DNA from: a phage
Strand: one strand, 5' to 3'
DNA: 64,000 bases
Assembly: GCA_033580375.1 (NCBI GenBank)
Contig: GCA_033580375.1_4527.1
Shown here: one piece after another, positions 44,065 through 63,750 of the stretch
Layout of the letters: every line of letters starts with the position of its first letter
Numbering within the stretch: the first letter of the stretch is position 1
Program-made: the position numbers and the translations under genes
Notes under the pieces: model-generated
Seen by the model: only the letters and a program-made list of their open reading frames with translations
What the model was told of the DNA's origin: nothing
Database searches by the model: none

Positions 44065-44101
44065 TAGGACTACTATAACATAGTCCTACCAAGATGTAAA
44101 C
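44065..44101 (-). promoter_or_regulatory. early promoter with TAGGACTA / TAGTCCTA inverted repeat
   Basis: minus GTTTACatcttggTAGGACTAtgttatagTAGTCCTA; same cassette at 55166, 56457, 63389, 63713. Confidence 0.55.
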
Positions 44102-44337
44102 TACCGATTGTGTTTTAAATGTTGATAAAGTTCTTCAACTTGTTTAGGGTCCAAAACAATTAAGTCATTTTCTTGACGAAGATAAATCCATCCCTTATCC
44201 CCAGGACCATTTTTACAAAACATCACCGTCGTCATATCATCATCTTCAGCGCTTTCAGGTAAAAGTTCAAGTACGCCGTCTTCAGATTTTCCAGTATAAT
44301 CGTAAAGCATAATGTCCTCACATAATCTCGTTAACAT
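44101..44337 (-). CDS. hypothetical protein
   Basis: 78-aa ORF. Confidence 0.4.
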   Translation of the reverse strand: MLTRLCEDIMLYDYTGKSEDGVLELLPESAEDDDMTTVMFCKNGPGDKGWIYLRQENDLIVLDPKQVEELYQHLKHNR

Positions 44338-44536
44338 ACATTTGCAATTCAGTGTGCGTATCAGCCATCTTTTTCATTGCCTTATTGATATCGATATCAC
44401 CGTCTTCACACCCATGGGCATTTTCCCAATCAGATACAGCATTAGCATACTCTTCAATCAAAAACATTAACTTAGAAATTTTTTCTTTACGTGACATAAC
44501 GTTCTCCTCTAGTAAGTAAGGTCTACTATAACACAA
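44318..44536 (-). CDS. hypothetical protein
   Basis: 72-aa ORF. Confidence 0.4.
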   Translation of the reverse strand: MCYSRPYLLEENVMSRKEKISKLMFLIEEYANAVSDWENAHGCEDGDIDINKAMKKMADTHTELQMYVNEIM

Positions 44537-44563
44537 CCTGAGGAGAAGTAAACTGATAGATAC

Positions 44564-44592
44564 AAAAAAGCCCCAACCTTTCGGAAGGGGCT
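44564..44592 (-). terminator. rho-independent terminator
   Basis: hairpin AGCCCC...GGGGCU followed by U6 on minus RNA; identical hairpin at 61057..61085. Confidence 0.6.
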
Positions 44593-44598
44593 AGTAAA

Positions 44599-44901
44599 TT
44601 AGATAGATGTAGGCTCTAATTTTATTTTCATGAACTCGGCAAATTGTCTGGCAGTTTTTATGCCTTGTTCCTGGCATTCAAATGCATCATCACAGGGGCT
44701 ATTTTTGTAATGCTTTGCCATATACTTATAAAATTTTTCAGAATTCTCAACATTTTGAATTTCGAACAAAGTATATACGTTTTTAATCCCTGATTCCATA
44801 AAGTTATCAAAGTACGGGTCAACATATGCAGTACCAACAATAGGAGTCGTTGCTGCAAAAAACCCCAGCATCGCCACAATGGCTATCGCTCTTAAGGCCA
44901 T
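44599..44901 (-). CDS. secreted protein (signal peptide)
   Basis: 100 aa; N-terminal hydrophobic signal-like segment, Cys pairs. Confidence 0.45.
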   Translation of the reverse strand: MALRAIAIVAMLGFFAATTPIVGTAYVDPYFDNFMESGIKNVYTLFEIQNVENSEKFYKYMAKHYKNSPCDDAFECQEQGIKTARQFAEFMKIKLEPTSI

Positions 44902-44913
44902 ATAGGCCTCCTG

Positions 44914-45126
44914 TTAATTTTGGCCAGTATTTATTTTTCGCCTTTGAACGGCCTTAACATCTGCGAGGTATTTTTCCAGCTTGCGCTTGCGTGTATAATC
45001 AGCTTTAGAACCAGTTTGACGGATATCCTCGTTTAAATGAGAAATAGAATGTCCTAATTCTCTTCGGATTTCATCCAATTGGGTTACAGTAAGATTACGA
45101 AGTTGTCTTTCGTTTAATTGCTGCAT
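44914..45126 (-). CDS. hypothetical protein
   Basis: 70-aa basic ORF. Confidence 0.4.
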
Positions 45127-45153
45127 ATATACCTCTTGGTTAGATATTAGTAT

Positions 45154-45735
45154 TTATAACAACCCTGTCAAATCATTCCAATGCTTCCGGCATAATGACA
45201 CATATCTATCGGTATCACCAATTTCAATTTGTCCACCGTCTGTAATTGGAAGTCCATCTTCCGTGACTCTAGCTACCATAGTGGCCTTTTTACCACAATG
45301 ACAGACACCTTTAAGTTCAACAAGCTTGTCGGCAATAGCCATTAATGCTTGAGAACCTTCAAATAGATTACCTTTAAAATCTGTTCGTAGTCCATATGCC
45401 ATTACTGGCACATTGTATACGTCAACAATACGACTAAGTTGATACACCTTTTCAGTAGTTAAGAACTGAGCTTCGTCAACAAATACACAGTGAATATCCT
45501 TTTGTGCTGCAGCCCATTTATAGAATTCAAAGATATCCATGTCTTTTGTAATTATATTGGCATCCTGACGAATACCAATACGAGAGACTATTTCACCTTT
45601 TGAATCACGAGTATCAATATCCGGTTTAAGAACTAATACACCCATGCCACGTTCTTTATAGTTATGTGCGGCAGTAAGTAATGAAGCAGACTTACCAGCG
45701 TTCATTGCTGCATAAGTAAAAATTAAACTCGCCAT
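45154..45735 (-). CDS. tk: thymidine kinase
   Basis: 193 aa; YAAMNAGKS Walker A, VDEAQF, C-terminal CxCG...C zinc motif; same length as T4 Tk. Confidence 0.9.
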   Translation of the reverse strand: MASLIFTYAAMNAGKSASLLTAAHNYKERGMGVLVLKPDIDTRDSKGEIVSRIGIRQDANIITKDMDIFEFYKWAAAQKDIHCVFVDEAQFLTTEKVYQLSRIVDVYNVPVMAYGLRTDFKGNLFEGSQALMAIADKLVELKGVCHCGKKATMVARVTEDGLPITDGGQIEIGDTDRYVSLCRKHWNDLTGLL

Positions 45736-45744
45736 AAGAGTCCC

Positions 45745-45927
45745 TTATAATGAATTCACATAGTCAATGAGTTCTTGTTCTTTCCTGTCAAATGATTCCA
45801 ACAACGCTTGATATTCTTCATCTGTTAAAGGAGCATATTCATCGTACGCATTGGTGGCTGCTTGCTCATCCAATAGGTCATGGATAAGTTCGAACAGTTT
45901 AGCTTTCTCTTCTTTAGTCAATTTCAT
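45745..45927 (-). CDS. hypothetical protein
   Basis: 60-aa acidic ORF. Confidence 0.35.
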   Translation of the reverse strand: MKLTKEEKAKLFELIHDLLDEQAATNAYDEYAPLTDEEYQALLESFDRKEQELIDYVNSL

Positions 45928-46151
45928 TTAGGTTCACCTTCTTTAACGAAATCTGGGTAAGGGTAAAATCCTGAGTAAAACCCTTCACCTTTGTGATTGC
46001 TACAACCTTTGTTCGAACAGTAGCACCAATAATCAAAATCACAAGCCATTTCATCATTGCATAAAGCAAAAACTACAGGCCATTCACATCTTTCGCATTT
46101 AGCACCTGTAAGAATTTTTGTTTGACTCATAACCATTTGACCTGCATGCAA
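45924..46151 (-). CDS. small Cys-rich protein
   Basis: 75 aa with about 10 Cys (possible Zn binding). Confidence 0.4.
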   Translation of the reverse strand: MHAGQMVMSQTKILTGAKCERCEWPVVFALCNDEMACDFDYWCYCSNKGCSNHKGEGFYSGFYPYPDFVKEGEPK

Positions 46152-46339
46152 TATTCTTCGACATGCTTTTTACGACCTTTCTTATCAATAAAGGTGTATT
46201 CCATAAAGCGTCCATGATAACGACGTTCAACATCGTGAGGGGTGTTAATAGGACACTTAGTCTGACGAATTTCTTCCCATTCACGAATAATAACTGCTTT
46301 ATTCTTTGGGTCATACGGGTGAGGATAATGCACATTCAT
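46127..46339 (-). CDS. hypothetical protein
   Basis: ATG at 46339 overlaps the TGA of the macro-domain gene (ATGA). Confidence 0.4.
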   Translation of the reverse strand: MNVHYPHPYDPKNKAVIIREWEEIRQTKCPINTPHDVERRYHGRFMEYTFIDKKGRKKHVEEYCMQVKWL

Positions 46340-46833
46340 AATAATGGTTCCCAATCAACAATCACAATTTCTAGTTTAGTGGAATATGTATCAAGAATTT
46401 CTTCGATAACGTCCCAGTTTCCACCACCGATACCTGCACCAATTCTTGGCATATAAATTACAGGCTTTGTTATCTTATTCTTTCCGAATTCATTTAATTC
46501 TATTATACAATTCATTAAAGCAGAGTACTCAAAATTAGGTCCCGGCTCAAACTGTGTATAAAGATTAAAGCAATAAGCTTTATGGGTCTTAAAATATTTT
46601 TCATAAACTGAATAAGACCCGAGTTTAGACTCGTCTCCGAATTCGGTTTGAAGTTTATCAGCTTCCAGAATTTTTGGATAAGCCTTTGCTAATTGTCCTG
46701 CCACACCAGCGCCCATTGTATGAAAACAATTACACCCATGAGCAATATTGTTACCTTTAGAAAACAGGGCGACAATATCGCCCTTGATATAGTTTTTAAT
46801 CACTTGCTGCAAGTCCTCTAGTATAAGAGTCAA
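46336..46833 (-). CDS. macro-domain protein (ADP-ribose binding / hydrolase fold)
   Basis: 165 aa; AHGCNCFHTMGAGVAGQLAKAYP and MPRIGAGIGGG resemble macro-domain glycine-rich motifs. Confidence 0.55.
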   Translation of the reverse strand: MTLILEDLQQVIKNYIKGDIVALFSKGNNIAHGCNCFHTMGAGVAGQLAKAYPKILEADKLQTEFGDESKLGSYSVYEKYFKTHKAYCFNLYTQFEPGPNFEYSALMNCIIELNEFGKNKITKPVIYMPRIGAGIGGGNWDVIEEILDTYSTKLEIVIVDWEPLL

Positions 46834-47143
46834 CTAGACGGTCCACCATAGAATTGCATGCTGCCTTATCTTTAGGTTCCGCCACCGAGCATTCTAATAT
46901 TTGCCATTTTTTATGATATCGTTTAATTAAGGTAGACGCCTTGAACCTACTAGACGCCCCATCTTTTTCTCCGTCTTTATATGCGTATAACAATTTTTGT
47001 GAAAAATCTACTTTACACTCTTGACTTTTACCACAATAATCAGACGCCGTTCTGTTTGTATACTCCGTTACATCAGTATATGTAGTATTAGCAAGAGCGT
47101 TAAATGAAACCAAGCCAACTATTAAAGCCAACATTTTGGTCAT
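46796..47143 (-). CDS. secreted protein (signal peptide)
   Basis: 115 aa; hydrophobic N-terminus, ends ALA-NT. Confidence 0.45.
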   Translation of the reverse strand: MTKMLALIVGLVSFNALANTTYTDVTEYTNRTASDYCGKSQECKVDFSQKLLYAYKDGEKDGASSRFKASTLIKRYHKKWQILECSVAEPKDKAACNSMVDRLVDSYTRGLAASD

Positions 47144-47682: not shown

Positions 47683-47690
47683 GTTTACCT

Positions 47691-48149
47691 CTAGATTTTA
47701 ATAACTGCTTTAGAAGCTTTTCCTGGTAGTCGTTTACTGTTAATAATAGCCATTCTACATTGAAGAGTCTTCATTTTGAATGCCGGATTTTCGCGACAAA
47801 CTGTAAGGCCTAGCCAAAGATTTCCATCAGTTATTTCTAAACGGCCTGGGCGGTATTCGACACCTTCGACAAAATCTTCATCAACATCTGGACGTGCCGG
47901 CATTGATAAAAATTCTGCAACTTCTTTAACGTGATTTTTTACTTTACGAAATAATTCAAAAACGTAATTCTCATCTATTTCTCTCTGGATGGCACGATCT
48001 AAGAGATGTTGAGAATACTTGATATGAAAGCCTGGTAGTCCAAGAGACTTTGCAGCATCTTTTATACCGGCATTTATTTTGCGGAACTCCGTTTCAAAGA
48101 TTCGACGGAGTTTATTACGGCGGATAAAAACTTCCGAATTGATAGTCAT
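47691..48149 (-). CDS. regB: endoribonuclease RegB
   Basis: MTIN.EVFIRRNKLRR.FE.EFR.IN...YSQHLLDRAIQREIDE.YVFELF...PGRLEITDGNLWLG.TVC...LQCRMAIINS.RLPGKASKAVIK matches T4 RegB. Confidence 0.9.
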   Translation of the reverse strand: MTINSEVFIRRNKLRRIFETEFRKINAGIKDAAKSLGLPGFHIKYSQHLLDRAIQREIDENYVFELFRKVKNHVKEVAEFLSMPARPDVDEDFVEGVEYRPGRLEITDGNLWLGLTVCRENPAFKMKTLQCRMAIINSKRLPGKASKAVIKI

Positions 48150-48157
48150 TTTGATTT

Positions 48158-48206
48158 CTCCTCTAGTTGACAGGTCTATAGTAACACAACTAGAGGAGAA
48201 GTAAAC
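48158..48206 (-). promoter_or_regulatory. early promoter embedded in 12-bp inverted repeat sequestering regB SD
   Basis: minus GTTTACtt-CTCCTCTAGTTG-[loop TGTTACTATAGACCTG]-CAACTAGAGGAG-aaatcaaa-ATG. Confidence 0.6.
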
Positions 48207-48210
48207 TACT

Positions 48211-48426
48211 TTATTGATAAAATGGAGTTAAAGCCCAAGATTCTTTAGATACCATATCGGCGAAATGCCTCATCTCTTCGATTTGGCGACGACGCTGGTC
48301 AGCATAGTCTTCTTCGCCTTCTTCTTTACAATCTTCAAGGTCTTCTTCAAGATACTTTAAGTATTCACTACAAATTTTGTTGATCTTTTCCTGGAAGTCC
48401 AATAACCCAGTAATAGTAGAAGCCAT
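48211..48426 (-). CDS. hypothetical protein
   Basis: 71-aa acidic ORF. Confidence 0.4.
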   Translation of the reverse strand: MASTITGLLDFQEKINKICSEYLKYLEEDLEDCKEEGEEDYADQRRRQIEEMRHFADMVSKESWALTPFYQ

Positions 48427-49268: not shown

Positions 49269-49274
49269 ATAACC

Positions 49275-50452: not shown

Positions 50453-50755
50453 TTATTTACCTTTAATTACTTTAGCTGCTTCGATAGCCGCTTGCTGAAG
50501 GTCATCCATAGACATACCGAATTTAGAAGCAAAGTTATCAATTTTCTTTTCGACAGCATTCAAAGGCTTGGCCTGTTTACCTTCATTAGCGCCAGGAAGA
50601 GCGAGAATACGCTCTTTGTCAATATAAAGGCTTACAAGTTTCTTACGGTCTTTATCGGACAAATCATGAAATGAATGGGCCTTTTTATTTATAGCGGCTT
50701 CTAATTTACCTGCACTCACTCGAGCTTCAGTAATAAATTCTTGATATGTTTTCAT
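50453..50755 (-). CDS. ipII: internal protein IPII-like (capsid-targeting N-terminus)
   Basis: 100 aa; N-terminal MKTYQEFITEA matches the T4 internal-protein targeting sequence cleaved by the prohead protease. Confidence 0.65.
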   Translation of the reverse strand: MKTYQEFITEARVSAGKLEAAINKKAHSFHDLSDKDRKKLVSLYIDKERILALPGANEGKQAKPLNAVEKKIDNFASKFGMSMDDLQQAAIEAAKVIKGK

Positions 50756-50796
50756 ATGTTTCCTTTAAATGTAAATAGGCCTATACTTAGACCTTA

Positions 50797-51375
50797 TTAA
50801 TTACCACGGGCTGCATTAGCAACGGCGTAAGCGTACTGAACATTAGCGTCTTTAAACGTACCTTTAGATGTATCTATTTCTGCCTTAAAGCCACCTTTAG
50901 CCATAACATCGGCAAATTCTTTACGGAAAGCCATTGCATCAAGACCTTTCCATGATGATTTATGCTTGGCAAATTCAAGACCAGCGTAGTTGACAGCTTT
51001 AGCTAATTTATTATCAATAACCCATTTACCGGCTTTAGGCACAAACTTCGGGCCTTTTTGTTTAGAGAACAGTTTTAAATTCCAGCGACGAAGGTCACTG
51101 TCGGCTTTAACAAAAGCTGCGTCTAAGTTACTAGCAACAACATCTTCAATATGAGCAAATTTAAGTCCGTCAACTTCAATATTTAGATCGTTACGCCAGC
51201 GTAGTCCTTCCCAAGCGAAGGCTTTAAAATCAGAAGCCTTTGTAGCTAAGTACCGTTCAATAGGAGCTGTTTTAGGGTCAAAGCCGTTTCCGCCACGATA
51301 AGTCCACTCGTCCTTATTAATGCCTTGAGCTTTTCCTGCAAAGGCCTCGGCGATAAATTCTTTATACGTTTTCAT
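50797..51375 (-). CDS. ipIII: internal protein IPIII-like
   Basis: 192 aa; N-terminal MKTYKEFIAEA. Confidence 0.65.
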   Translation of the reverse strand: MKTYKEFIAEAFAGKAQGINKDEWTYRGGNGFDPKTAPIERYLATKASDFKAFAWEGLRWRNDLNIEVDGLKFAHIEDVVASNLDAAFVKADSDLRRWNLKLFSKQKGPKFVPKAGKWVIDNKLAKAVNYAGLEFAKHKSSWKGLDAMAFRKEFADVMAKGGFKAEIDTSKGTFKDANVQYAYAVANAARGN

Positions 51376-51438
51376 TTTTGTTTCCTTGTTTGTTTTGATA
51401 GAGTAATTATACCATATTAATACTTAAGCGTAAACAAT

Positions 51439-51699
51439 TTAAGCTTTACCGCCAGAAATAATTCCGAAGTTGTTAAAATCGTATCCAATATCGTCAGCAT
51501 CTACTTTAGGACTTGCTACAACATAAGCAATTTCACTACGTTTTGCATAGGTGTTGATTTCTTTACCATCGCCACCTAAGAAAGAATACCCATTACGTTT
51601 TAATGAGCCAAAGTCTTCCGCATCACCAATGAAAGCTTTAACTTTAAATTTGGGGTCTTTGGCATCCGCTTCAGTGATAAATTCTTGATACATTTTCAT
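51439..51699 (-). CDS. internal-protein-like (CTS-bearing) small protein
   Basis: 86 aa; N-terminal MKMYQEFITEA. Confidence 0.55.
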   Translation of the reverse strand: MKMYQEFITEADAKDPKFKVKAFIGDAEDFGSLKRNGYSFLGGDGKEINTYAKRSEIAYVVASPKVDADDIGYDFNNFGIISGGKA

Positions 51700-51705
51700 T
51701 TTTCC

Positions 51706-52119
51706 TTAGTAAATTGATTTACCATAGTATTTGTACCAAGTGGGACGTTGAGCAATTTTTTCATCTAAGCGTGCTTGACTTATCGCAATGGACGCTTCGG
51801 ACGGGACATAATTATTACGAAATTCTACAGGAATGTCGGAAATATCCTGGACTGTCGTGTCCTTGATTTTGAAACCACGTTTCAAACATTCAGCTATTAG
51901 CTCGATTTGACGTAAACGTAAAAATTCGAGTTTGTCGTAAAAGAATGTTACGTGGCCCGTGCCTAAAATAAATGTTGGAGAGATTTTAAAATCTTTTACA
52001 CGTTTACCATTTTGAACATGTTTACGGACTGCACCGAATACACGAGGTAATTCACGATACTCAGCCATAAGATGTTGGTCGGTCAGTTCAGAAACAAGTG
52101 TTAAATTGATACGGGTCAT
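51706..52119 (-). CDS. denV: endonuclease V (pyrimidine-dimer DNA glycosylase) DenV
   Basis: [91 protein letters not shown] near-identical to T4 DenV. Confidence 0.9.
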
Positions 52120-52177
52120 AATTTCCTCCAAGTAGTTGATAGATGTATAGTATCAAAACCCTTGGAGGAAGTAAACA
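52120..52177 (-). promoter_or_regulatory. early promoter with inverted repeat (cctccaag / cttggagg)
   Basis: minus GTTTACttCCTCCAAGggttttgatactatacatctatcaactaCTTGGAGG. Confidence 0.45.
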
Positions 52178-52459
52178 CTATTTTTCTGAAGCGCCTGAAA
52201 TATATTTTTCAAGACGTTGTTTCATCAGCGAGCCGTTCTTAGCGATTTCTTCGGGTTTATCGCACATACGCAACAGTGCTTCAAGCTTAACGATATCACT
52301 GGTGCGCTCAAATTTGCGAGTATCTATCTTACTGGCAAGTTCAGAAATACGTGCTAATAGACTTTCAGCTTCGACCAAAGCTGCACCTAGCTTAGTTGCA
52401 AATGTGTCAGTAGCTTCATTAAGAATAGATTCTGATAAAAATTCATTATATGTTTTCAT
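52178..52459 (-). CDS. internal-protein-like (CTS-bearing) protein
   Basis: [11 protein letters not shown] from ATG 52459, which overlaps the lysozyme TGA (ATGA). Confidence 0.5.
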
Positions 52460-52944
52460 ATATACGCTTTCCAAGTTCCTGTTTTAAATGTTGAGATTAC
52501 GCGTTTCGCGCGATTAGGTGTCTGACGATACCATTTAGATTGGGCGAGATTTACTGCCGCTTCATCCCAACGTTTCTGTTGAAGCATACGAAGAGAATTA
52601 GTAAAACCAGCAACGCCTGCTACACCCATTTGGAAGACCATATTGACCAATGCACATCGACGAACTGCATCTAAAGAATCATATACCGGTTTAAGTTTAG
52701 CATTACCCAAGATTCCGCGAACGGCTTTATCAACATCTTCATTAAATAGCTTTTCAGCCTCATCAAGGGTAATTGTACCGTTGCATTTACGACCGATCAT
52801 TCTATCAAGTTCAGCTTTAGCTACGGCTAAAGACGGGTTCTTTGTTACCAAATGGCCTATGCCAATAGTCCAAAAGCCTTCGGTGTCTTTGTATAAAGAC
52901 AGTCTAAGACCTTCGTCATTACGAAGCATTTCAAATATATTCAT
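52456..52944 (-). CDS. e: lysozyme (endolysin) e
   Basis: [37 protein letters not shown]...[50 protein letters not shown] near-identical to T4 lysozyme. Confidence 0.9.
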
Positions 52945-53678: not shown

Positions 53679-54151
53679 TCGGTAATAAAACGTTCAACTT
53701 CATTATTCTTGGCTTTTATCTTGTCTTTACGTTCCTGTAAACTACTTTTAACAAGATTAATAATGATGCCTATAGTACCTCCACCAATAATACCACCAAT
53801 AATACTTACGATAGTAGATGCTAATAATATAGCGATAATATCTGGTATGGCAAAGGCACTTACTTTAGTACTAAAAAACCATACCGACGGTGCAAATATA
53901 ATCCATCCTGTTATCCATTGGCACTTATTGAAAAACTTTTCAAGCTCAGCTTGAGTTGTTCGTATTACTTCATCGATAGGTTGATATCCATTAATGTATC
54001 TGTTCACGATAATACCTGCTGGCTGGTCGATTTTAAATTCTTGGCAAATACGTTTCACTAAGTAGGATGGACATCCTGTCCAATCTACTGAGTAGTACGA
54101 AATACCTTCATTACCGTCGTCTATATTAGACCAATATGTTTTGTTAATCAT
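53660..54151 (-). CDS. membrane-anchored protein
   Basis: 163 aa; hydrophobic segments in C-terminal half including Gly-zipper IIGGIIGGGTIGII. Confidence 0.45.
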   Translation of the reverse strand: MINKTYWSNIDDGNEGISYYSVDWTGCPSYLVKRICQEFKIDQPAGIIVNRYINGYQPIDEVIRTTQAELEKFFNKCQWITGWIIFAPSVWFFSTKVSAFAIPDIIAILLASTIVSIIGGIIGGGTIGIIINLVKSSLQERKDKIKAKNNEVERFITECRNLR

Positions 54152-54837
54152 TACCAGCCTTCCATAGGGAATTCCAGATAAACTTGGGCATTGACACGAA
54201 TTTCATTGGTAATCTTTTTAACTCGGTCTGTATTACGAGATACACGTCCGAACCAACGCCATCCATTACTAATTGCACGAGAACCAGTGTGCCATGTTTG
54301 CCAATCAAACTGAAGAAGAGTACGGTCTGGAGCTTCCCATTTCTCTAGTTCACCTTTTTCAATTTTTTCGAGGACTTCTTTGTGCCATTGTCGATAGATA
54401 AGTTCGCCATCAGGAATCTGACTGAACTCTGCAGTTCCTGTTGCAAAATGAGTAGGACACACGTCAGCGTTAACAAGGCCAAGAATATGTTCAGACAAAT
54501 AGCGAGGATTGTCATAATCAGGTTGTCCTGCAGTAATAAAATGTTGACCAACTGGAATATCCGGGCGTGGTACATCGTCATGGTGATAACCTGGGATAGC
54601 AGGGTACCAACCAGGCATCAGCATGTGGACTCGTGAATCAAATACCACATCCGAGCCTTTCCAATCGTCAGGGAGATTTTGGATAAAGCTACGAGTAATT
54701 GGGCCGCCATTATCAAAAGCAAAATTCAAATCGCAGTTAAAGAACATAGGCTCGTTTTTAATCTGGTCATTTTTAATCGCATGAGCAAAACCACCTACTG
54801 CACGAGCTTGACTATTAAACACTTTAGAACTATTCAT
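54151..54837 (-). CDS. hypothetical protein
   Basis: 228-aa ORF. Confidence 0.45.
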   Translation of the reverse strand: MNSSKVFNSQARAVGGFAHAIKNDQIKNEPMFFNCDLNFAFDNGGPITRSFIQNLPDDWKGSDVVFDSRVHMLMPGWYPAIPGYHHDDVPRPDIPVGQHFITAGQPDYDNPRYLSEHILGLVNADVCPTHFATGTAEFSQIPDGELIYRQWHKEVLEKIEKGELEKWEAPDRTLLQFDWQTWHTGSRAISNGWRWFGRVSRNTDRVKKITNEIRVNAQVYLEFPMEGW

Positions 54838-54838
54838 A

Positions 54839-55144
54839 TTATTTTCCTCGACATTCTTTAATGAAATTTTCTAGATTGGTAGATTCAATAGCTTTTTTAC
54901 GAGCTTCTGCATGTTCTTCTTCAGACAATTTACATTTATAATTAACCCAGACGTTATGGTCAAAACTAGTCGTGGCGTATAATAACAAAGCCCCGACAAA
55001 TAATAAAAATGGTGATAAGAATACAAAACCAGGAACACCATCCATATCGTAAGCCTTTTGTAATACTGCAACAGAAAGAGCTGCATAAAAAGGTGATGCA
55101 AATATTGTTAAAAGACCAATTCGGTTGGTTTCTGTTAATTTCAT
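54839..55144 (-). CDS. membrane protein
   Basis: 101 aa with two hydrophobic helices. Confidence 0.45.
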   Translation of the reverse strand: MKLTETNRIGLLTIFASPFYAALSVAVLQKAYDMDGVPGFVFLSPFLLFVGALLLYATTSFDHNVWVNYKCKLSEEEHAEARKKAIESTNLENFIKECRGK

Positions 55145-55165
55145 AATATTCTCCTCATGTTTTAA

Positions 55166-55202
55166 TAGGACTACTATAACATAGTCCTATAATTGTGTAA
55201 AC
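55166..55202 (-). promoter_or_regulatory. early promoter with TAGGACTA / TAGTCCTA inverted repeat
   Basis: taggactactataacatagtccta + gtaaac; copy of the 44065 cassette. Confidence 0.55.
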
Positions 55203-55214
55203 AGTTTTGCGAAA

Positions 55215-56171
55215 TTATTTGAAAGGTTTTACCATATGGAAATTTTGTTTGAAACGTTTGACGTAATCATCATGTCCTAAGCTTTGGTACATACTTACTA
55301 CTTTGCTGTAGTTTTCCCAAGCGTATTCACGGAACCAACCGGAGGTGATGCTTGTGCAGACTTTTTCTAATGCCATCATAAAACTGGCTTCAGGGTTAAT
55401 TTTAAAGTCATTAGGAATCTGAGAACGTTCTAATGCTAGTACACATGATTCTTCGTATACACCGGCCAATTTGACCATTTCTGGTAATGATTCGAACTTC
55501 TCGCGTGAGGTCATGACTTCAGAACCATCTTTCATGTAAAACGTATAAGCAGGGCGGTCTGTTAGTGCAATGGCTTCGTGAATAGTATCATGGACATACG
55601 TATAGATGTCATCTTTAAAGAATGCGCTTTTAGAAGTGTCAAGAACTGGGTGAGCATAGTTCAAGGTTTCTTTCTGGCGTTTCAGCATAATTTCAGTAAG
55701 TTCATCGTTCAGTGTAACACCTTTACCACGAAGATACTGAATATGGTTCATAGTCTTTAAAAAGAATGGATTATTTTTCTTGAAACGATGAGACATCTTA
55801 ATTGCAAGACACATCTCAGGAGTTGCCCAGTAAAACCCGTTCAAACGGTCTTTAGTCAAATTTTTCTTGGCGTATTTTAAAAGGTCATAAGAAGACGTGA
55901 AATCTTCAGGAGTGAGTTCACCGACTAATTCACGGACATTAGTGATTGCCGGAACAATATATGCTTCAAAATGAGTTTCGCGTCCATTATGGAAGCATTT
56001 GAAAACTTGGACATCAGGATTATCTTGGTGAACATATACACCCATCATTTGATTTTTGAATGCATTCCAAGAACCTTGGTCCGCAATAAAGTCCCAGTCA
56101 CTATTTTTAATAGCGCTAGAATCAATAAGGCCGTGATAGTGAAGTGCACGAGAACCAATAACTAACATCAT
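55215..56171 (-). CDS. hypothetical protein
   Basis: 318-aa ORF, no motif recognised. Confidence 0.5.
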   Translation of the reverse strand: MMLVIGSRALHYHGLIDSSAIKNSDWDFIADQGSWNAFKNQMMGVYVHQDNPDVQVFKCFHNGRETHFEAYIVPAITNVRELVGELTPEDFTSSYDLLKYAKKNLTKDRLNGFYWATPEMCLAIKMSHRFKKNNPFFLKTMNHIQYLRGKGVTLNDELTEIMLKRQKETLNYAHPVLDTSKSAFFKDDIYTYVHDTIHEAIALTDRPAYTFYMKDGSEVMTSREKFESLPEMVKLAGVYEESCVLALERSQIPNDFKINPEASFMMALEKVCTSITSGWFREYAWENYSKVVSMYQSLGHDDYVKRFKQNFHMVKPFK

Positions 56172-56196
56172 AATAATTTCCTCGAATTTAGATTAC

Positions 56197-56448
56197 TTAA
56201 ATTTCGCGACATGCGATATTATATTCATCCCAGAGGTCATCGTGTGAAGCCTCTACCAATGGAACGATTGTACCGTTTATGTCTTCATTATAAGGACAAA
56301 TTGTACAGTGCGCATCTTCGAATCGTATGCCTTTGTGTTCAGATTTTTTATAACGCATATCGAATATCTTTGCAAACTTTTCACGAGTAATGGTTTTACC
56401 AACCACTTTGGTTCCGATACTTTCGTAATAAATCATTGTGGACTCCAT
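56197..56448 (-). CDS. hypothetical protein
   Basis: 83-aa ORF. Confidence 0.4.
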   Translation of the reverse strand: MESTMIYYESIGTKVVGKTITREKFAKIFDMRYKKSEHKGIRFEDAHCTICPYNEDINGTIVPLVEASHDDLWDEYNIACREI

Positions 56449-56456
56449 TTAATTTG

Positions 56457-56494
56457 ATAGGACTACTATAACATAGCCCTATCTTGTTGTAAAC
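56457..56494 (-). promoter_or_regulatory. early promoter cassette (taggactactataacatagccctat)
   Basis: near-copy of the 44065 cassette with GTTTAC. Confidence 0.5.
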
Positions 56495-56498
56495 TGTT

Positions 56499-56696
56499 TT
56501 AGCAAGAATAACTAGACGATACCCAGCCTTGAACAGTAATACTATTATTGGATAATGAGATTGCGTTCTGGAGATTCAGACCTGCGTTATCTTCAATCCA
56601 CAATGTAACTTCTTCGCGTTCTTCTGTTGCAATTTGGAACAGGTTTTCCAGAGCAGCTACTGCCGTACGTACAGCACAATCTAATTCACGAGACAT
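56499..56696 (-). CDS. small protein, paralog family with C-terminal GWVSSS..C (member 3)
   Basis: 65 aa ending QGWVSSSYSC. Confidence 0.45.
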   Translation of the reverse strand: MSRELDCAVRTAVAALENLFQIATEEREEVTLWIEDNAGLNLQNAISLSNNSITVQGWVSSSYSC

Positions 56697-56705
56697 ATGG
56701 TTTCC

Positions 56706-56978
56706 TTAGCAAGTGTGAGAAGATGCAACCCAACCGCCGTCTTCAAGGCTCAGGTTGTAGTCGTATTGGTAAACGTCAGCCCATTCAGCATAACCGTTTT
56801 TTGTACAACGTTCAAGATCGGCTTTAAGATGTCCAGGTGAATGATAGGTTCCACCCATACCATAAGCTGGATACAAGTCGAATGTTGTGTTTTGTTTATT
56901 AGCAATTTCTTTGGCTGCCTCAATAGCTGCATAGATTTTTGCTACGGCTTCAGCCAGTTCGGTTTGTTCTTTAGACAT
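56706..56978 (-). CDS. small protein, paralog family with C-terminal GWVSSS..C (member 2)
   Basis: 90 aa ending GGWVASSHTC. Confidence 0.45.
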   Translation of the reverse strand: MSKEQTELAEAVAKIYAAIEAAKEIANKQNTTFDLYPAYGMGGTYHSPGHLKADLERCTKNGYAEWADVYQYDYNLSLEDGGWVASSHTC

Positions 56979-56987
56979 AATGATTCC

Positions 56988-57293
56988 TTAGCACAATGCA
57001 GAAGAGGAAACCCAAGCACCTTCAGTAATAACGTAACCATTACCTTCACGCTTAACATCGCCACCATTATTTTCAATTTCATCTTTCATCCACTGGGATA
57101 CAATTTCACCCTTAGGATAATAAGTACGACCGCTACCATAATCACCTACAGAAAACGATACGGCGTATTGGTCTGCGATCTTTGTTGCTTCTTCTTCGAT
57201 ACGTTCAGCTTGATTCAGAAGTTTATAAATTGCATCTGAAGCGGATTTGGCATCATTAAACTCTGGTACTTTAATTTCGATAATCTTACTCAT
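56988..57293 (-). CDS. small protein, paralog family with C-terminal GWVSSS..C (member 1)
   Basis: 101 aa ending GAWVSSSALC. Confidence 0.45.
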   Translation of the reverse strand: MSKIIEIKVPEFNDAKSASDAIYKLLNQAERIEEEATKIADQYAVSFSVGDYGSGRTYYPKGEIVSQWMKDEIENNGGDVKREGNGYVITEGAWVSSSALC

Positions 57294-58594: not shown

Positions 58595-58611
58595 GTTAAC
58601 TCCTTTATTAT

Positions 58612-58635: not shown

Positions 58636-58643
58636 GTATTATT

Positions 58644-59237: not shown

Positions 59238-59307
59238 ATTATTACCTTTCAATTGGTGGTTTATTATCCAACGAGAGCATTATACTCTGCTCTCAAGAGT
59301 TTGTACA

Positions 59308-59535
59308 TTATTTTTTAATCAAATTGACATAAAACTCTGCGTCTTCCGGGTGCATGCCTTCGCAGTATTCTTCAACCATGAACTTCTTAACAGCTTCATA
59401 AGGACCACTCAGATTAAGCTCAGTTGTCCAAAACTTGGAATCTTGGGCTGAATCGATACGAACTTCAGGGTGACGGTTGCGAATAACTTCTTCGGTGTAT
59501 TCATAATCAACGACATCAATACTAACTTTAGCCAT
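59308..59535 (-). CDS. hypothetical protein
   Basis: 75-aa acidic ORF. Confidence 0.4.
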   Translation of the reverse strand: MAKVSIDVVDYEYTEEVIRNRHPEVRIDSAQDSKFWTTELNLSGPYEAVKKFMVEEYCEGMHPEDAEFYVNLIKK

Positions 59536-59602
59536 TTTGTTTCTCCTCTGTAGTTGATAAGTTTATAGTATCACCATCATTGGTGCTTGTACATCATTAT
59601 TT

Positions 59603-59935
59603 TTAATTTTTCCAACTTAACAACTTGTAGTGTCCTTCATTCGTACGAGGTTTATCCCAAGAAATACTAATATATGATTCGCTGTCAATAGAAGTCGCCG
59701 GGTTTTTCTCTACAGTAAGACCTTCGCTTTCCAGCCATTCAATAGTGTTTGCGCATAAATCAGAAGAACACCTCATTGGAAACTGACAAGATTTTTCACC
59801 TTTAGCTGCAGTGTTATACATCTTTTCTAAAATACGCTTTTGCACGTTTTTAAAAATAGTTTCAGCAGATTCTTCAGATTTTTTATTCAGTTCAGTATAA
59901 AGACTCATAACATTCTTCTCGTTAATAGGGCTCAT
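59603..59935 (-). CDS. hypothetical protein
   Basis: 110-aa ORF. Confidence 0.45.
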   Translation of the reverse strand: MSPINEKNVMSLYTELNKKSEESAETIFKNVQKRILEKMYNTAAKGEKSCQFPMRCSSDLCANTIEWLESEGLTVEKNPATSIDSESYISISWDKPRTNEGHYKLLSWKN

Positions 59936-59965
59936 AATATCTTAATCATGAGCCCATGTAAACAA

Positions 59966-60241: not shown

Positions 60242-60371
60242 GGTTTTTCTGTATCGGTAGTTGATAGTTGTATAGTACCACGGAAGAACAGGGATGTAAA
60301 CAGTTTTGTGAAAAAAATTTTTAAAAAGTTTTGGGGAATTCTAGGACAGGGAGAGGAAAGGCCTAGATACC

Positions 60372-60398
60372 AAAAAGCCCTATCTAAATGATAGGGCT
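60372..60398 (-). terminator. rho-independent terminator
   Basis: minus RNA AGCCCUAUC-AUUUA-GAUAGGGCU followed by UUUUU. Confidence 0.55.
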
Positions 60399-60403
60399 TA
60401 AAA

Positions 60404-60967: not shown

Positions 60968-61056
60968 TTAAAATCCTTGAAATAATTTATCGGTTGGTTA
61001 TTAATTATTTATTACTTTGGTATTATCAGTAACAGCATTCTCTGAGAGATTCAAAC

Positions 61057-61085
61057 TAAAAAGCCCCAACCTTTCGGAAGGGGCT
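61057..61085 (-). terminator. rho-independent terminator (same hairpin as 44564..44592)
   Basis: AGCCCCAACCTTTCGGAAGGGGCT with A-run on plus = U-run on minus RNA. Confidence 0.6.
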
Positions 61086-61398
61086 AAGCCTTGCGGCGAC
61101 CTTGTCGGGGTTCCACCTGCTAAGGCAAGTGTTTGTACGAAACGCCGGGATTCGAACCCGGTTATTAAGCAGTTGACGCTACTCAATATTTTTAAAAGGC
61201 CATATCTCGACCATATCCGAACGTTCCGTCAAAAACGCTACTCGGCTTACGGCAAAGATATTTCCTCGAATCGATAATTCTGTGCGCCGTTTCTGCTGTG
61301 ATGTAAGGGGATATTAACGAATCATAAAGATTTATTAAGACCAGTCCTTACTCAGGGAACATCAGTCCGACGACTTGCCGGTAGCGACCCGGCTTCTC

Positions 61399-61743
61399 TT
61401 ATTTTGGCATATCATCAATTTGCTCTCTACGCCGACGCCATAGATTAATCGCTTCATAGGCACATTCTGCGTTTGGTATATGACGGCAATAATATAATGA
61501 TTCACGTTTCTGAAACCGATGTTGCAATGGGATTTCGTTTAAAAGGTCTTTACGATCAAAGTATTCAAAACTAGTTAACCCTGAACGGTTTTTAATGAAC
61601 TTCCAATGACCGAATTCATTTTGAACATAGATGTAATCAGCGTGTTGATAAAGTGAATTAATCAATCGGTCTGAAATAACTGTATCATGTTCGTTAAAAT
61701 AAAACGTTAAATCATGAACTACTAAATAGACATTACCTTTCAT
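61399..61743 (-). CDS. hypothetical protein (start trimmed so it does not overlap tRNA-Arg)
   Basis: ATG at 61743 with GAGGA SD; track ORF start 61791 would overlap the tRNA. Confidence 0.45.
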   Translation of the reverse strand: MKGNVYLVVHDLTFYFNEHDTVISDRLINSLYQHADYIYVQNEFGHWKFIKNRSGLTSFEYFDRKDLLNEIPLQHRFQKRESLYYCRHIPNAECAYEAINLWRRRREQIDDMPK

Positions 61744-61761
61744 ATTTTCCTCACTTATAAT

Positions 61762-61838
<77 letters not shown>

Positions 61839-61844
61839 AATATA

Positions 61845-61918
61845 TGACCCAGACCAGATTCGAACTGGTAACCTTTCCCTTATGAGGGGACTGCTACTAA
61901 CCGTTGAGCTACAGGGCC
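61845..61918 (-). tRNA. tRNA with CAU anticodon (Met or Ile2)
   Basis: hand-folded: T-arm ACCAG-TTCGAAT-CTGGT, anticodon loop CTCATAA, acceptor GGCCCTG/CTGGGTC with one mismatch; no encoded CCA. Confidence 0.55.
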
Positions 61919-61997
61919 TAAATAACTTTCTATTATGAAAGGCACTTTAGAGCACCTTTGGTAATAGAGGGTATGAGTTAATAATAACACATAATTC

Positions 61998-62513
61998 TTA
62001 AAGCAAATCAATCATTTTAACAGTCGGCAAAACGATTTCTTCTTCAATATAAGCAAATTCAACACATTCAACTACACGCAAGAAATCATAATCATAATAT
62101 TCAGAAGCATAGCCAAGAATATCAATGAGACCTTCTGATACTAAATATCCATTCTCACGGAACAGGTCAAATACACGTGATTCATCTTCTTCAGATTTAT
62201 TACCGAGGTCGACTTCAATATCAAAGACCTTTTTAATGAATTCTGGATAAAGCTGGTCTGAGAACAATCCTTCAACCAAGTATTCATAGATTAAAAGCGA
62301 GCAATCACTGAATGGTGTATTACCACAGTAACGTTCAGCTTTAGTGCTAGAATGACGACTCTTAAATTTCTTCAAAAGATATTTAAACTGTTGGAGCTCA
62401 TGCTCTTCCACTTCAAACAATGTTTTGGTTTTATAGTTGTCACCATCATTTTCATAGGTAGTGACATCAATTACATAACCCTTAGGAATTGTACTGCCTA
62501 AACAAATATTCAT
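61998..62513 (-). CDS. hypothetical protein
   Basis: 171-aa acidic ORF. Confidence 0.5.
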   Translation of the reverse strand: MNICLGSTIPKGYVIDVTTYENDGDNYKTKTLFEVEEHELQQFKYLLKKFKSRHSSTKAERYCGNTPFSDCSLLIYEYLVEGLFSDQLYPEFIKKVFDIEVDLGNKSEEDESRVFDLFRENGYLVSEGLIDILGYASEYYDYDFLRVVECVEFAYIEEEIVLPTVKMIDLL

Positions 62514-62517
62514 TTAC

Positions 62518-62808
62518 TCACCGTACCATATTAATGTAATTATATTCAATGCAACGTAATTTCAAAGGATTCTTGAAAATATCATATTCAAGAGGACCTT
62601 TTTCTGTTTCAATAAAGAAATCAAAGTTAACTGTATTAAATTTATCATCTTCACAGAGTAATTTAACTTGCGAAGATGAACGGTCGATATAAACCTTTTC
62701 AACCTCAAAGTTAGTCAGAATACCGTAGTCATCAACTAGTGCTTTAGCTGCACGTTGGTCGCTTTCGTATCCGTTCTCAATAGATGACACTTTAGCATAA
62801 AGAATCAT
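62518..62808 (-). CDS. hypothetical protein
   Basis: 96-aa ORF. Confidence 0.45.
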   Translation of the reverse strand: MILYAKVSSIENGYESDQRAAKALVDDYGILTNFEVEKVYIDRSSSQVKLLCEDDKFNTVNFDFFIETEKGPLEYDIFKNPLKLRCIEYNYINMVR

Positions 62809-63167
62809 GAATGTTCCACCACTTCAAAGCTATGAGCATCAACAATATGATACCAGTCAAAATTTTCTTCTGCGTTTTTATAAATTTCGCGAAGAGCTTC
62901 AACAGTTTTTCCTGTAGCAACAAGATCATCAATACCACCAAGAGGATAACAGTCATAACCAGCAAACAGAAGGAAATTAATAGTTTCTGTAGGTTCTGGA
63001 TGCAGAACACCGTTATCATCTACCACTTCAAAGAAAGTGTAAGAAGGAGTACAAGTTTTAATCCAAGCCCATGCTTGAGATGCCGAATCAAATGGTCTAC
63101 GTATCAAACGACAATCAGGGTCTTTAGAAGGATTTGCTTCAAAATCTGCATATACATGATATTTCAT
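62805..63167 (-). CDS. hypothetical protein
   Basis: 120-aa ORF; preferred over overlapping 62792..63019. Confidence 0.45.
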   Translation of the reverse strand: MKYHVYADFEANPSKDPDCRLIRRPFDSASQAWAWIKTCTPSYTFFEVVDDNGVLHPEPTETINFLLFAGYDCYPLGGIDDLVATGKTVEALREIYKNAEENFDWYHIVDAHSFEVVEHS

Positions 63168-63374
63168 TTACTCACCTTTTGCAATTTTATCCATAACAAT
63201 AGCGATTAAACCGATTAGAAATGCTACTACCAATGAGATAGAATTTTCGGTTGTTGTCAGTAGTCCGCAAATGAATCCTACAAACATCGAAAAACTAAAA
63301 GCCATTGAAGCAATTACTACAGCAACATTACGAATCAGTTCAGCGCGTTTCATTTTATTTCTCCATTTACTCAT
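63168..63374 (-). CDS. small membrane protein
   Basis: 68 aa, two TM helices. Confidence 0.45.
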   Translation of the reverse strand: MSKWRNKMKRAELIRNVAVVIASMAFSFSMFVGFICGLLTTTENSISLVVAFLIGLIAIVMDKIAKGE

Positions 63375-63388
63375 TTTGTTTTGATAGG

Positions 63389-63420
63389 ACTACTATAACA
63401 TATCCATATAGGCTTGTATA
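63389..63420 (-). promoter_or_regulatory. early promoter cassette (taggactactataacatatccatat)
   Basis: same -10-region cassette, -35 variant GTATAC. Confidence 0.45.
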
Positions 63421-63423
63421 CCT

Positions 63424-63687
63424 TTATTTCAAATATATTGCGTATTTTTTATAGCCACCAGGCTCATGTCGAAGACCTTTATCATTCGCAAAACGTTGAA
63501 TGTTATTGAACTGATTTTCGTCAAGTTCGGATGTGTCAAATATGAAAAAGTTTCGTTTGTTACCAAGCGTGATATGCGGAGTTAAGTCAATGTTATACAA
63601 ATTAAGAATATCAGCAATAACCTGATTGACCGCTTTGTTAATTTTCACACCAGACGATTCTGAGATGAATTCGTTGAAAGTTTTCAT
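63424..63687 (-). CDS. internal-protein-like (CTS-bearing) small protein, possibly IPI-like
   Basis: MKTFNEFISES from ATG 63687; located just past the tRNAs, where ipI lies in T4. Confidence 0.5.
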   Translation of the reverse strand: MKTFNEFISESSGVKINKAVNQVIADILNLYNIDLTPHITLGNKRNFFIFDTSELDENQFNNIQRFANDKGLRHEPGGYKKYAIYLK

Positions 63688-63712
63688 TTTAGGTTCCATT
63701 TGGTTGTTTTGT

Positions 63713-63750
63713 TAGGACTACTATAACATAGTCCTACAAAGATGTAAACT
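63713..63750 (-). promoter_or_regulatory. early promoter with TAGGACTA / TAGTCCTA inverted repeat
   Basis: ttaggactactataacatagtcctacaaagatgtaaac. Confidence 0.55.

Follow-up and report, generated by a model that had tools for sequence, protein, structure and literature searches.

Introduction

Previous studies have shown that T4-type phages can carry small regulatory cassettes repeated through their hyperplastic regions. In phages RB49 and phi1 these elements, termed PeSLs (promoter-early stem-loops), consist of an early promoter, a stem-loop, a Shine-Dalgarno sequence (SD), and a start codon, and their definition admits a stem-loop that sits after the -35 and before the -10 box, or that overlaps the latter (Arbiol 2010, PMC2839356). 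RB49/phi1 PeSLs are repeated in hyperplastic regions, where they mediate insertions and deletions (indels) and mini-circles; promoter activity, terminator activity, and mini-circle formation have been shown for them, and the mini-circle crossovers were mapped within or beside the stem-loop, for which a dedicated protein was speculated (PMC2839356). Here, we describe a repeated early-promoter cassette with an inverted repeat around its -10 box in a 64,000-nucleotide stretch of phage DNA (GenBank assembly GCA_033580375.1, contig GCA_033580375.1_4527.1; the whole stretch is referred to as the window), and compare it with PeSLs and with the early promoters of T4 and RB69.

PeSLs were extended to T4/PST and KVP40/nt-1 by Comeau 2014 (PMC4122927), which gives the T4/PST promoter as TTTACW-N17-TAYWAT and the stems as AGNA-loop-TCNT. 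Both PeSL papers tie PeSLs to the T-even internal-protein (IP) locus motifs of Repoila 1994 (as cited in PMC2839356), and the PeSL authors call the T-even versions analogs, not homologs (PMC2839356). For RB69 itself, 57 early promoters were predicted, with C at -3..-1 (Nolan 2006, PMC1524935). The shut-off of T4-type early promoters is explained by neither AsiA nor ModA (Hinton 2010, PMC2988021).

Results

Six copies of a promoter cassette in an RB69-like phage

The window belongs to an RB69-like T4-type coliphage, a Mosigvirus, and is 95-97% identical to RB69-type phages including phiE142, ESh27, phiC120, and RB69 (54000-57000 and 40000-64000 compared). By comparison with RB69, the gene content of 36-64 kb is nrdC - tk - vs - regB - IP/denV - e - tRNA - ipI, with all genes on the minus strand. 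The nrdC-to-ipI stretch is a classic hyperplastic early region of T4-type phages.

Six copies of one cassette, near-identical over ~40 bp, were found at 6412, 44077, 55178, 56470, 63397, and 63725 (Table 1), and an independent repeat search groups all six in one family (D2). On the minus strand the cassette reads GTTTACA-N10-TAGGACTA-TGTTATAG-TAGTCCTA-(T/C)(C/T/A)AAAAC, followed by GGAG and ATG. The pattern TAGGACTA-N8-TAGTCCTA with at most two mismatches has five matches, at 6400, 44065, 55166, 56458, and 63713, where shuffles lead one to expect 0.01; the left arm of the sixth copy (63377-63421) is degenerate. The promoter reading is valid on the minus strand only, with GTTTAC(A), a 17-nt spacer counted from TTTACA, and an extended -10 box, TGtTATAGT. 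Every perfect copy carries the sigma-70-type early promoter pattern TTTACA-17-TATAGT with the TG extension, and cassette sites are among the best of a sigma-70 consensus scan of the region (10 of 12, each with TG). The sequence features of T4-type early promoters, GTTTAC at -36..-31 and a TGn + TAnnnT -10 box, are likewise present, and the GTTTAC/TGn -10 motif is also found in T4 itself; promoters of this type are those that unmodified host RNA polymerase recognizes directly upon infection.

An inverted repeat of 8-10 bp holds the extended -10 box in its loop; its 5' arm is part of the spacer (-24..-16), and its 3' arm occupies -7..+2. The stems, which provide the stem-loop of a PeSL, are predicted to fold at -14 to -20 kcal/mol, with z from -3.3 to -5.3. 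An SD and an ATG follow 25-45 nt past the -10 box on the gene strand, and at about two-thirds of early-promoter junctions the preceding gene ends -2 to +4 nt from the -35 box (its stop codon is 12 nt away at cassette 55178), the overlap often reading TAGTTTACA with the G shared. This packing of stop codons sets the hairpin ~11 nt after the upstream stop. The PeSL layout, with an upstream stop beside the -35 box and an SD plus start codon at the 3' end, is thus found here, as is PeSL repetition, with six copies near small accessory genes and ORFans of the nrdC-tk-e-tRNA-ipI region; the genes apparently driven by the six are spackle, an internal head protein gene, and genes for four small proteins of unknown function. 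The cassettes are therefore best described as a putative T-even-type PeSL family in an RB69-like phage, the PeSL idea itself being published and not new.

Much of this had been proposed in a first-pass annotation made from the letters of the window, which reported near-identical ~40-bp cassettes at five sites, with GTTTAC as -35 and the -10 box inside an 8-bp inverted repeat. All five were found, the 6412 variant making six, and the promoter assignment holds on the minus strand; the coordinates in that annotation are plus-strand positions of the palindrome. The related copies it placed at 6395, 40046, 41384, 41665, and 52120 all exist, and the 26-bp duplicate it noticed (37404/38423) was confirmed, with 89% identity over 36 nt, its sequence TACAACCAAGGATGGTTGGAGTATAAT being a promoter spacer plus -10 box. 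Its comparison with the mobile regulatory cassettes of T4-type hyperplastic regions is supported, as all features by which PeSLs are recognized in sequence are present. The window holds more cassette families than that annotation listed, for example 29490/59260, as well as the terminator repeats 44555/61048.

Table 1. Promoter cassettes, related promoters, and associated elements in the window (positions count from its first letter; IP, internal protein; SD, Shine-Dalgarno sequence)
Feature	Position	Strand	Description
Cassette copy 1	63685..63749	-	-35 GTTTAC 63749-63744; inverted repeat TAGGACTA/TAGTCCTA 63736-63713; -10 TATAGT 63725-63720; leader, SD, and ATG (63687) of internal head protein gene
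Cassette copy 2	63351..63421	-	Weak -35 GTATAC; left arm ATATGGATA degenerate; right arm and -10 unchanged; trna.4-like 61-aa ORF downstream
Cassette copy 3	56434..56494	-	Left arm TAGGGCTA, giving G.T wobble on sense strand; RB69ORF135c homolog downstream
Cassette copy 4	55142..55202	-	10-bp stem; RB69ORF133c homolog downstream
Cassette copy 5	44041..44101	-	Stem GGTAGGACTA/TAGTCCTACT; upstream TAG stop overlaps G of GTTTAC; mobD.2-like mini-ORF downstream
Cassette copy 6	6375..6436	-	Variant GATGGACTA TAGTATAG TAGTCCTAT; drives spackle (sp)
Second-family promoter TGTTATTATAGACCTA	40036..40095	-	Own bracket hairpin AGGTCTAT/ATAGACCT
Second-family promoter	41360..41430	-	Without left arm; one of two direct repeats around ORF102c
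Second-family promoter	41647..41710	-	Partial left arm TAGGATA; other direct repeat beside ORF102c
Early promoter 59939	59905..59963	-	Unrelated bracket hairpin GGGCTCATGAT/ATTATGAGCCC, -18.9 kcal/mol
CTCTTGAGAGCA-GAGTATAA-TGCTCTC cassette	59260..59315	-	5' of e.6; arms GAGAGCA/TGCTCTC (59285)
GAGAGCA-family second copy	29490..29545	-	Compensated arms GAGAGA/TCTCTC (29515); repeat family D13
26-bp cassette copy 1	37395..37433	-	Spacer with internal hairpin AACCAaggaTGGTT + TATAAT; 5' of nrdC.3; family D20
26-bp cassette copy 2	38415..38453	-	5' of nrdC.5 paralog
Sister-class promoter 52152	52116..52176	-	Spacer TTCCTCCAAG pairs with own SD region CTTGGAGGAA, 10 bp
Sister-class promoter 48183	48147..48212	-	14-bp spacer/SD inverted repeat TTCTCCTCTAGTTG/CAACTAGAGGAGAA
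Sister-class promoter 7725	7691..7749	-	14-bp spacer/SD inverted repeat TTCTCCAGTAGTTG/CAACTACTGGAGAA, -23.7 kcal/mol, z = -7.1
Composite unit	44490..44600	-	Intrinsic terminator tagccccttccgaaaggttggggcttttt, then directly early promoter with spacer/SD hairpin
Terminator second copy	61048..61086	-	Same terminator as in composite unit; repeat family D11
IP-locus promoter	51343..51435	-	Promoter and conserved IP N-terminal leader; repeat family D8

The stem is conserved as a structure

A 47-nt cassette query gave 4-8 matches per Mosigvirus genome and usually one or two per genome in other T4-like genera; the matches include 49 Acinetobacter phage records. Across phage genera the arms carry compensatory changes (GGAC/GTCC, GAAC/GTTC, GGGC/GCCC, AAGAC/GTCTT). 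The left and right arms are ATAGGACTA and TAGTCCTAT in Acinetobacter AM101, ATAGAACTA and TAGTTCTAT in Yersinia phiD1 (GAAC/GTTC), GTAGGGCTA and TAGCCCTAC in Enterobacter KMB20 (GGGC/GCCC), and GGTAGGACT and TAGTCCTACC in QL01, while Serratia 4S shares with window copy 56470 the arms TAGGGCTA and TAGTCCTA, which leave a G.T on the sense strand. Of the 311 unique promoter-like cores in all sequences compared, 32 form 8-9 of the 9 possible Watson-Crick pairs when aligned in the register (-16-k, -7+k), and registers shifted by 1-3 give 0 or 1. In an alignment of 48 sequences (A1), 91.5% of cells pair and both sides vary in 9 of 10 pairs. Compensated cells number 41, compared with 9.0 +/- 2.5 after shuffling (0/500 reach 41) and 5-18 with slid partners; 43 of the sequences were picked solely by their -10 box and right arm, and 5 were added as known pairers, a mild selection bias.

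Furthermore, unrelated arms bracket the -10 box at the same position in window promoters 59939, 40071, 28794, and 59285/29515. The same arrangement is found in T4 early promoters, namely those of ipI (TGATGAGGTA/TACCTCATCA), dmd (GACAAGACT/AGTCTTGTC), mobD.2 (13 bp), ipII (14 bp), trna.4, e.7, and motB. Bracketing of this kind is a general feature of early promoters in T-even phages. Because the arms change in a compensatory way across genera and unrelated arms occupy the same place, these data show a stem that is selected as a base-paired structure and not as a sequence.

The six copies, nearly identical over ~40 bp, are of clear common ancestry, and copy 63397, whose left arm is degenerate, is functional or at any rate retained, both of which would fit a functionless inverted repeat, that is, one ancestral promoter, palindromic by chance, that was duplicated around the genome. 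We regard this account as highly improbable, since the compensatory double changes stand well above both controls, pairing in the one register is bimodal, and independent arm sequences occur at the same position in the window phage and in T4. At least four independent arms form a stem of at least 6 bp (main cassette, 59939, 40071, and 28794), against ~0.1 expected per 29 promoters by a hand estimate.

In AM101 (401-443) and 48 other Acinetobacter phage records, a 43-nt cassette copy is 84-86% identical, with the same arms. The Lazarusvirus copy lies directly 3' of gene 41; this genus is in Twarogvirinae, another subfamily than that of RB69. Such non-coding conservation between subfamilies is unusually high and suggests horizontal spread or strong sequence constraint. 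We considered whether the cassettes form an orthologous promoter series 3' of gene 41. A cassette follows this gene in AM101 and KMB20, but the corresponding window junction has another promoter (8158), and the window's cassette variant drives sp. The copies thus lie scattered and are not orthologs by position.

Predicted structure of cassette-initiated and read-through RNA

With the -10 box at -12..-7, the predicted start falls at the last A of TAGTCCTA, and the cassette's own transcript would therefore lack the hairpin; a start at this base agrees with the C at -3..-1 of RB69 early promoters (PMC1524935). Mean fold energy is -11.8 kcal/mol for read-through segments, compared with -0.8 for the same leaders from +1, and 12 of 29 promoters have read-through folds with z < -2. 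Folding predicts a paired SD in 68% of read-through RNAs, compared with 26% of the promoters' own transcripts. Folds of the sense strand are more stable than those of the antisense strand, the difference being 2.0 kcal/mol overall (n = 59, p = 6e-5) and 3.3 kcal/mol in the structured subset, a bias that modestly favors structure at the RNA level. In line with a fold on the sense strand, the G.T variant at 56470 is stably inherited in nearly all related genomes examined.

Bracket hairpins occur only at terminator-less junctions (9/22 versus 0/8; one-sided Fisher 0.035, hand-computed), and where the upstream stop does not abut the -35 box, a canonical terminator is usually interposed. The G+C-rich stem and U run of an intrinsic terminator are lacking in the cassette hairpins, and the true terminators at 44555, 60375, and 58618 are elements separate from the cassettes. 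Taken together, these data accord with the composite promoter/terminator-like unit of the published PeSL view. We infer that the hairpin may insulate transcription units, by attenuation or by protecting the 3' end of the upstream unit. A role in translational coupling, in which a terminating ribosome melts the hairpin, was considered and rejected: the 5' arm lies ~11 nt past the stop, which, given the general size of the ribosome footprint, is at or beyond the ribosome edge, so that the geometry is unfavorable.

In a sister class of promoters, the spacer pairs with the promoter's own SD region (Table 1). Shorter spacer/SD pairing, of 5-8 bp, was found at promoters 44530, 8158, 30942, and 1049, and in T4 such pairing is seen at denV, regB, and nrdC.8. 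A stem of at least 8 nt between a promoter's own spacer and downstream sequence is present in 6/29 promoters, compared with 3.6% of mismatched promoter pairs.

These observations bear on a DNA-level alternative, in which TAGGACTA-N8-TAGTCCTA serves as an operator. A dimeric protein, encoded by the phage or its host, would bind it over the -10 box and repress early promoters, perhaps as part of shut-off. The palindrome does overlap the -10 box, and its arm TAG[GA][AG]CTA is nearly constant in Mosigvirus, Dhakavirus, Karamvirus, Tequatrovirus phiD1, Serratia 4S, and Acinetobacter Lazarusvirus; co-evolution of protein and operator would also yield symmetric half-site changes, and a repressor would address a shut-off that AsiA and ModA leave unexplained (PMC2988021). 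However, within one genome the symmetry is kept with wholly different arms (GGGCTCAT, AGGTCTAT, and GAGAGCA; six in T4), and the stably inherited G.T variant breaks DNA symmetry. The half-site centers are 16 bp apart and so would face opposite sides of the helix, the spacer/SD pairing of the sister class makes sense in RNA only, and the fold is biased to the sense strand. An operator is therefore, in our judgment, improbable.

Gene-content breakpoints among nine relatives

The window was aligned to nine GenBank Mosigvirus genomes (RB69, ESh27, phiE142, phiC120, PhAPEC2, p000v, JS09, mogra, and MM02), and every gap of at least 25 bp was listed. This panel was chosen after a scan of IMG/VR with TAGRRCTATGTTATAGTAGYYCTA, which returned 8 stretches only, proved too small for population analysis. 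About 20 distinct events were found in 34-64 kb among these nine relatives. The p000v genome is without the 969 bp between the two 26-bp cassettes, and so without the nrdC.5 paralog (37438-38397), with a 53-bp overlap. Four genomes (p000v, JS09, mogra, and MM02) have lost ORF102c, which promoters 41685 and 41405 flank, with a 48-bp overlap. A 291-bp insertion at the IP locus of p000v has a 53-bp overlap junction in the promoter and leader of that locus. In JS09 and MM02 an additional gene of 201 bp is inserted precisely at the GTTTAC of cassette 55178, and this gene has its own promoter with an AGGTCT/AGACCT bracket. A 250-bp window segment missing in phiE142, phiC120, and p000v starts at the -35 box of promoter 57358; in both mogra and MM02 a gene replacement is bounded by the -35 box of promoter 48183; and a 1.1-kb replacement in four relatives has its left edge in promoter 59939. 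RB69 has a different IP gene between cassettes 63725 and 63397. Two further insertions lie at terminator repeats: 591 bp in ESh27, flanked by a 33-bp terminator repeat (44555), and ~515 bp in phiE142/phiC120 at repeat 61048, with a 31-bp overlap. Terminators, besides promoters, thus act as exchange sites. Events away from promoters were seen at 34804, 40358, 45935-46346, 51512-51649, 60355, 62008-62520, and the tRNA/homing-endonuclease site, and cassettes 56470 and 44077 have no junction in the nine genomes.

Measured against a uniform null, breakpoints fall in cassettes more often than expected (14/44 clustered breakpoints, 3.3 expected, P<0.0002). Measured against a gene-boundary null, they show no enrichment (13/30, 11.0 expected, P=0.28), and we therefore make no claim that cassettes attract breakpoints; the claim of exchange rests on shared-homology overlaps. 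The first-pass annotation had proposed that the cassettes provide sites for exchange of gene modules and that gene-content breakpoints between related genomes should correlate with them. The first part stands in that several junctions lie inside cassettes, with overlaps of 31-53 bp, and is limited by the lack of enrichment beyond gene boundaries. On the second, the record is mixed: junctions at 55178, 63397/63725, 37409/38428, 41405/41685, and 59939 are clear cases, 56470 and 44077 have none, and enrichment over gene boundaries is lacking. Collectively, the junctions point clearly to the use of cassettes as exchange sites, from which a preference over other gene boundaries does not follow.

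The same junctions would suit a hairpin acting in DNA, where a cruciform or a fold in single-stranded DNA, cut or bound by structure-specific phage enzymes (endonuclease VII, gp46/47), would make the cassette an active recombination hotspot and not just passive homology. Indel junctions lie within cassettes or border them, in many cases precisely at the -35 box (48210, 55196-55202, 57382, and 63421), crossovers within or beside the stem-loop were mapped and a dedicated protein was speculated for RB49/phi1 (PMC2839356), and the covariation is compatible with any structure-level constraint. Such a role is nonetheless unlikely: cruciform extrusion is poor for stems of 8-10 bp closed by 8-nt loops, folding is more favorable on the sense than on the antisense strand (where a G.T becomes an A.C), and breakpoints are no more frequent at cassettes than at other gene boundaries. 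Junctions are also found at promoters that have no hairpin (57358 and 41405) and at plain terminators (44555/61048).

Other promoter families and neighboring genes

A second promoter family, TGTTATTATAGACCTA, is present at 40071, 41405, and 41685, and the GAGAGCA family has a T4 counterpart in the motB promoter, a cassette of this family with GGGACC/GGTCCC arms. On the minus strand, TATAATAGACCTA at 28760-28800 has TAGGTCT 19 nt upstream, forming a 7-bp bracket, TAGGTCT/AGACCTA (28794). This site has no GTTTAC -35 box, and a MotA-box-like TGCTTTA lies farther upstream, though its distance is non-canonical; the site may represent a middle-type promoter that shares the hairpin design. The repeated terminator AAAAAGCCCCAACCTTTCGGAAGGGGCTA (plus strand) occurs at 44555-44593, 61048-61086, and 60362-60400, two of the copies being 90% identical.

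The IP-gene leader, an MKTY..EF-type capsid-targeting sequence, and its SD are present in four copies (50723-50766, 51343-51386, 51667-51710, and 52427-52470), and the IP locus at 50.2-51.7 kb is the most rearranged segment across the nine relatives. An Rfam scan of the window returned two tRNAs only and no other family; these genes lie at 61765-61838 and 61845-61918. The tRNA site (61754-61918) differs in length by 128-693 bp among relatives, and p000v has a homing endonuclease gene beside tRNA-Met. Between 36434 and 42745 on the minus strand, five tandem paralogs of 313-331 aa are homologs of nrdC.3, nrdC.5, nrdC.6, nrdC.10, and nrdC.11, the last being annotated as a nucleotidyltransferase; each has its own early promoter, and small ORFs (open reading frames) interleave them. 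At 34804-34873 the window is without the pin gene (Lon protease inhibitor) and, in comparison with RB69, without ORF087c as well. The genes of this site are present in 7/9 relatives as an insertion of 422-546 bp, and the junction has a 58-bp overlap in RB69, phiC120, and JS09.

Discussion

We propose, with a probability of roughly 75%, that each cassette is a self-contained early expression module that acts as a PeSL, its hairpin having a putative function in RNA. In such a module, the stop codon of the upstream gene abuts or overlaps the -35 box of a strong promoter for host sigma-70, built like the "early" promoters of T4 (GTTTAC(A), 17-nt spacer, TGnTATAGT), an 8-10 bp inverted repeat surrounds the -10 box, and an unstructured A-rich leader with an SD leads to the start codon of a small accessory gene. 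RNA initiated at the cassette would start at the last base of the 3' arm, without the hairpin and with its leader free. In RNA reading through from upstream promoters, the hairpin would fold ~11 nt past the upstream stop and would most likely close the upstream unit, as an attenuator or as 3'-end protection, where no canonical terminator exists. At the sister promoters, the ribosome-binding site (RBS) would be masked in read-through RNA, so that only the promoter-proximal RNA would be freely translatable. The 40-50 bp of near-identical sequence at gene boundaries would therefore be portable homology for the phage recombination system, which would insert, delete, and exchange promoter-plus-gene modules between related phages, as in the PeSL mechanism.

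Several points weigh against this proposal, beginning with the absence of breakpoint enrichment over gene boundaries. The random-window baseline of the sense/antisense difference is 0.76, so part of the asymmetry is compositional. G.T and A.C stem mismatches, whose ratio bears on whether selection acts on RNA or on DNA, stand at 9:3 among near-perfect members and at 9:8 with weak members included, and these events are few and non-independent. The cassette hairpin is followed by (C/T)(T/C/A)AAAAC, with no U tract, and is absent from the 18 terminator-like sites of the scan, which makes a classical intrinsic-terminator role doubtful. The arm TAG[GA][AG]CTA is conserved across genera far above purely structural need, leaving room for a sequence-specific reader or horizontal spread. 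Both the +1 position and read-through are deduced from sequence, as is any termination or processing at the hairpin. The operator, pure-duplication, and DNA-cruciform models are each less well supported than a self-contained module with an RNA hairpin.

A wider claim, which we put forward as speculative and probably wrong in its full form, is that the bracket hairpin is a conserved RNA device marking transcript origin, and more than a by-product of PeSL shuffling, such that early genes are expressed mainly from their own promoters, as a general insulation principle of T-even phages. The hairpin, or in the sister class a masked SD, would be present in read-through RNA only, and upstream units would be closed without canonical terminators. 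A bolder version would make the bracket structure the target of the unexplained early-promoter shut-off. If true, the origin-marking hairpin would be an insulation principle of T-even early regions that is absent from T4 reviews (PMC2988021, PMC3014915), kept in a fixed register across Tevenvirinae and even Acinetobacter Twarogvirinae.

The cassettes would explain the gain, loss, and exchange of small accessory genes in RB69-type phages, such as those for internal proteins, spackle-region genes, and ORFans, and many of the exchanged genes are candidates for host-range or anti-defense functions. Since each module would bring its own promoter and leader, exchange would leave the regulation of neighboring genes undisturbed. 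The cassettes are also good landmarks, both when early transcription units are to be annotated and when the plastic sites of therapeutic T4-like phages are to be predicted. What is added here, compensatory stem maintenance across genera together with SD masking in read-through RNA only, yields a testable insulation hypothesis for packed early genes.

Our literature search did not find RB69-type cassettes described as PeSLs. The T4 reviews (PMC2988021, PMC3014915) describe no inverted repeats in early promoters, and RBS-masking hairpins only for the e, soc, 49, and I-TevI leaders. The likeness to T4/RB69 early promoters (PMC1524935, PMC2988021) lies in the GTTTAC -35 box, the TGn extended -10 box, the A-rich upstream sequence, the C at -3..-1 (RB69), and a location 5' of T4 orthologs and novel ORFs alike. 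Accounts of these promoters leave the extra conserved positions as unexplained promoter "information," and Nolan 2006 (PMC1524935) mentions no inverted repeat. The sister class resembles the hairpins of T4 e, soc, 49, and I-TevI (PMC3014915), whose 5' arm lies upstream of an internal start site, so that the long read-through RNA masks the SD and RNA from the internal promoter is translatable. In those cases late or middle promoters delay expression, whereas here the internal promoter is early; unlike them, the TAGGACTA cassette hairpin leaves the SD uncovered.

Like the RB49/phi1 PeSLs (PMC2839356), the cassettes combine a stop codon in an AT-rich stretch, an early promoter, a stem-loop, an SD, and the start of a small ORFan, and are repeated and clustered in hyperplastic regions, with several of them at indel or replacement junctions of close relatives. 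RB49/phi1 PeSLs differ in having near-consensus TTGACA/TATAAT and G/C-rich stems (GGGG..CCCC) with demonstrated terminator activity, whereas the cassettes described here have a T-even promoter (GTTTAC, TGnTATAGT) and an A/T-rich stem without a U tract. For the T4/PST PeSLs (PMC4122927), going by their description in the text, the promoter consensus matches, and AGNA..TCNT fits AGGA..TCCT and AGAA..TTCT. T4/PST PeSLs and the IP-locus motifs are linked to internal-protein gene swaps, and cassettes 63725 and 63397 flank such an IP gene; RB69-type phages, compensatory changes, a fixed -10 register, and the spacer/SD class are not reported in PMC4122927 or in the Repoila work as cited in PMC2839356. 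Set beside these systems, the cassettes are modestly new in the compensatory evolution of their stem across genera, its fixed -10 register, the SD-pairing class, and the restriction to terminator-less junctions.

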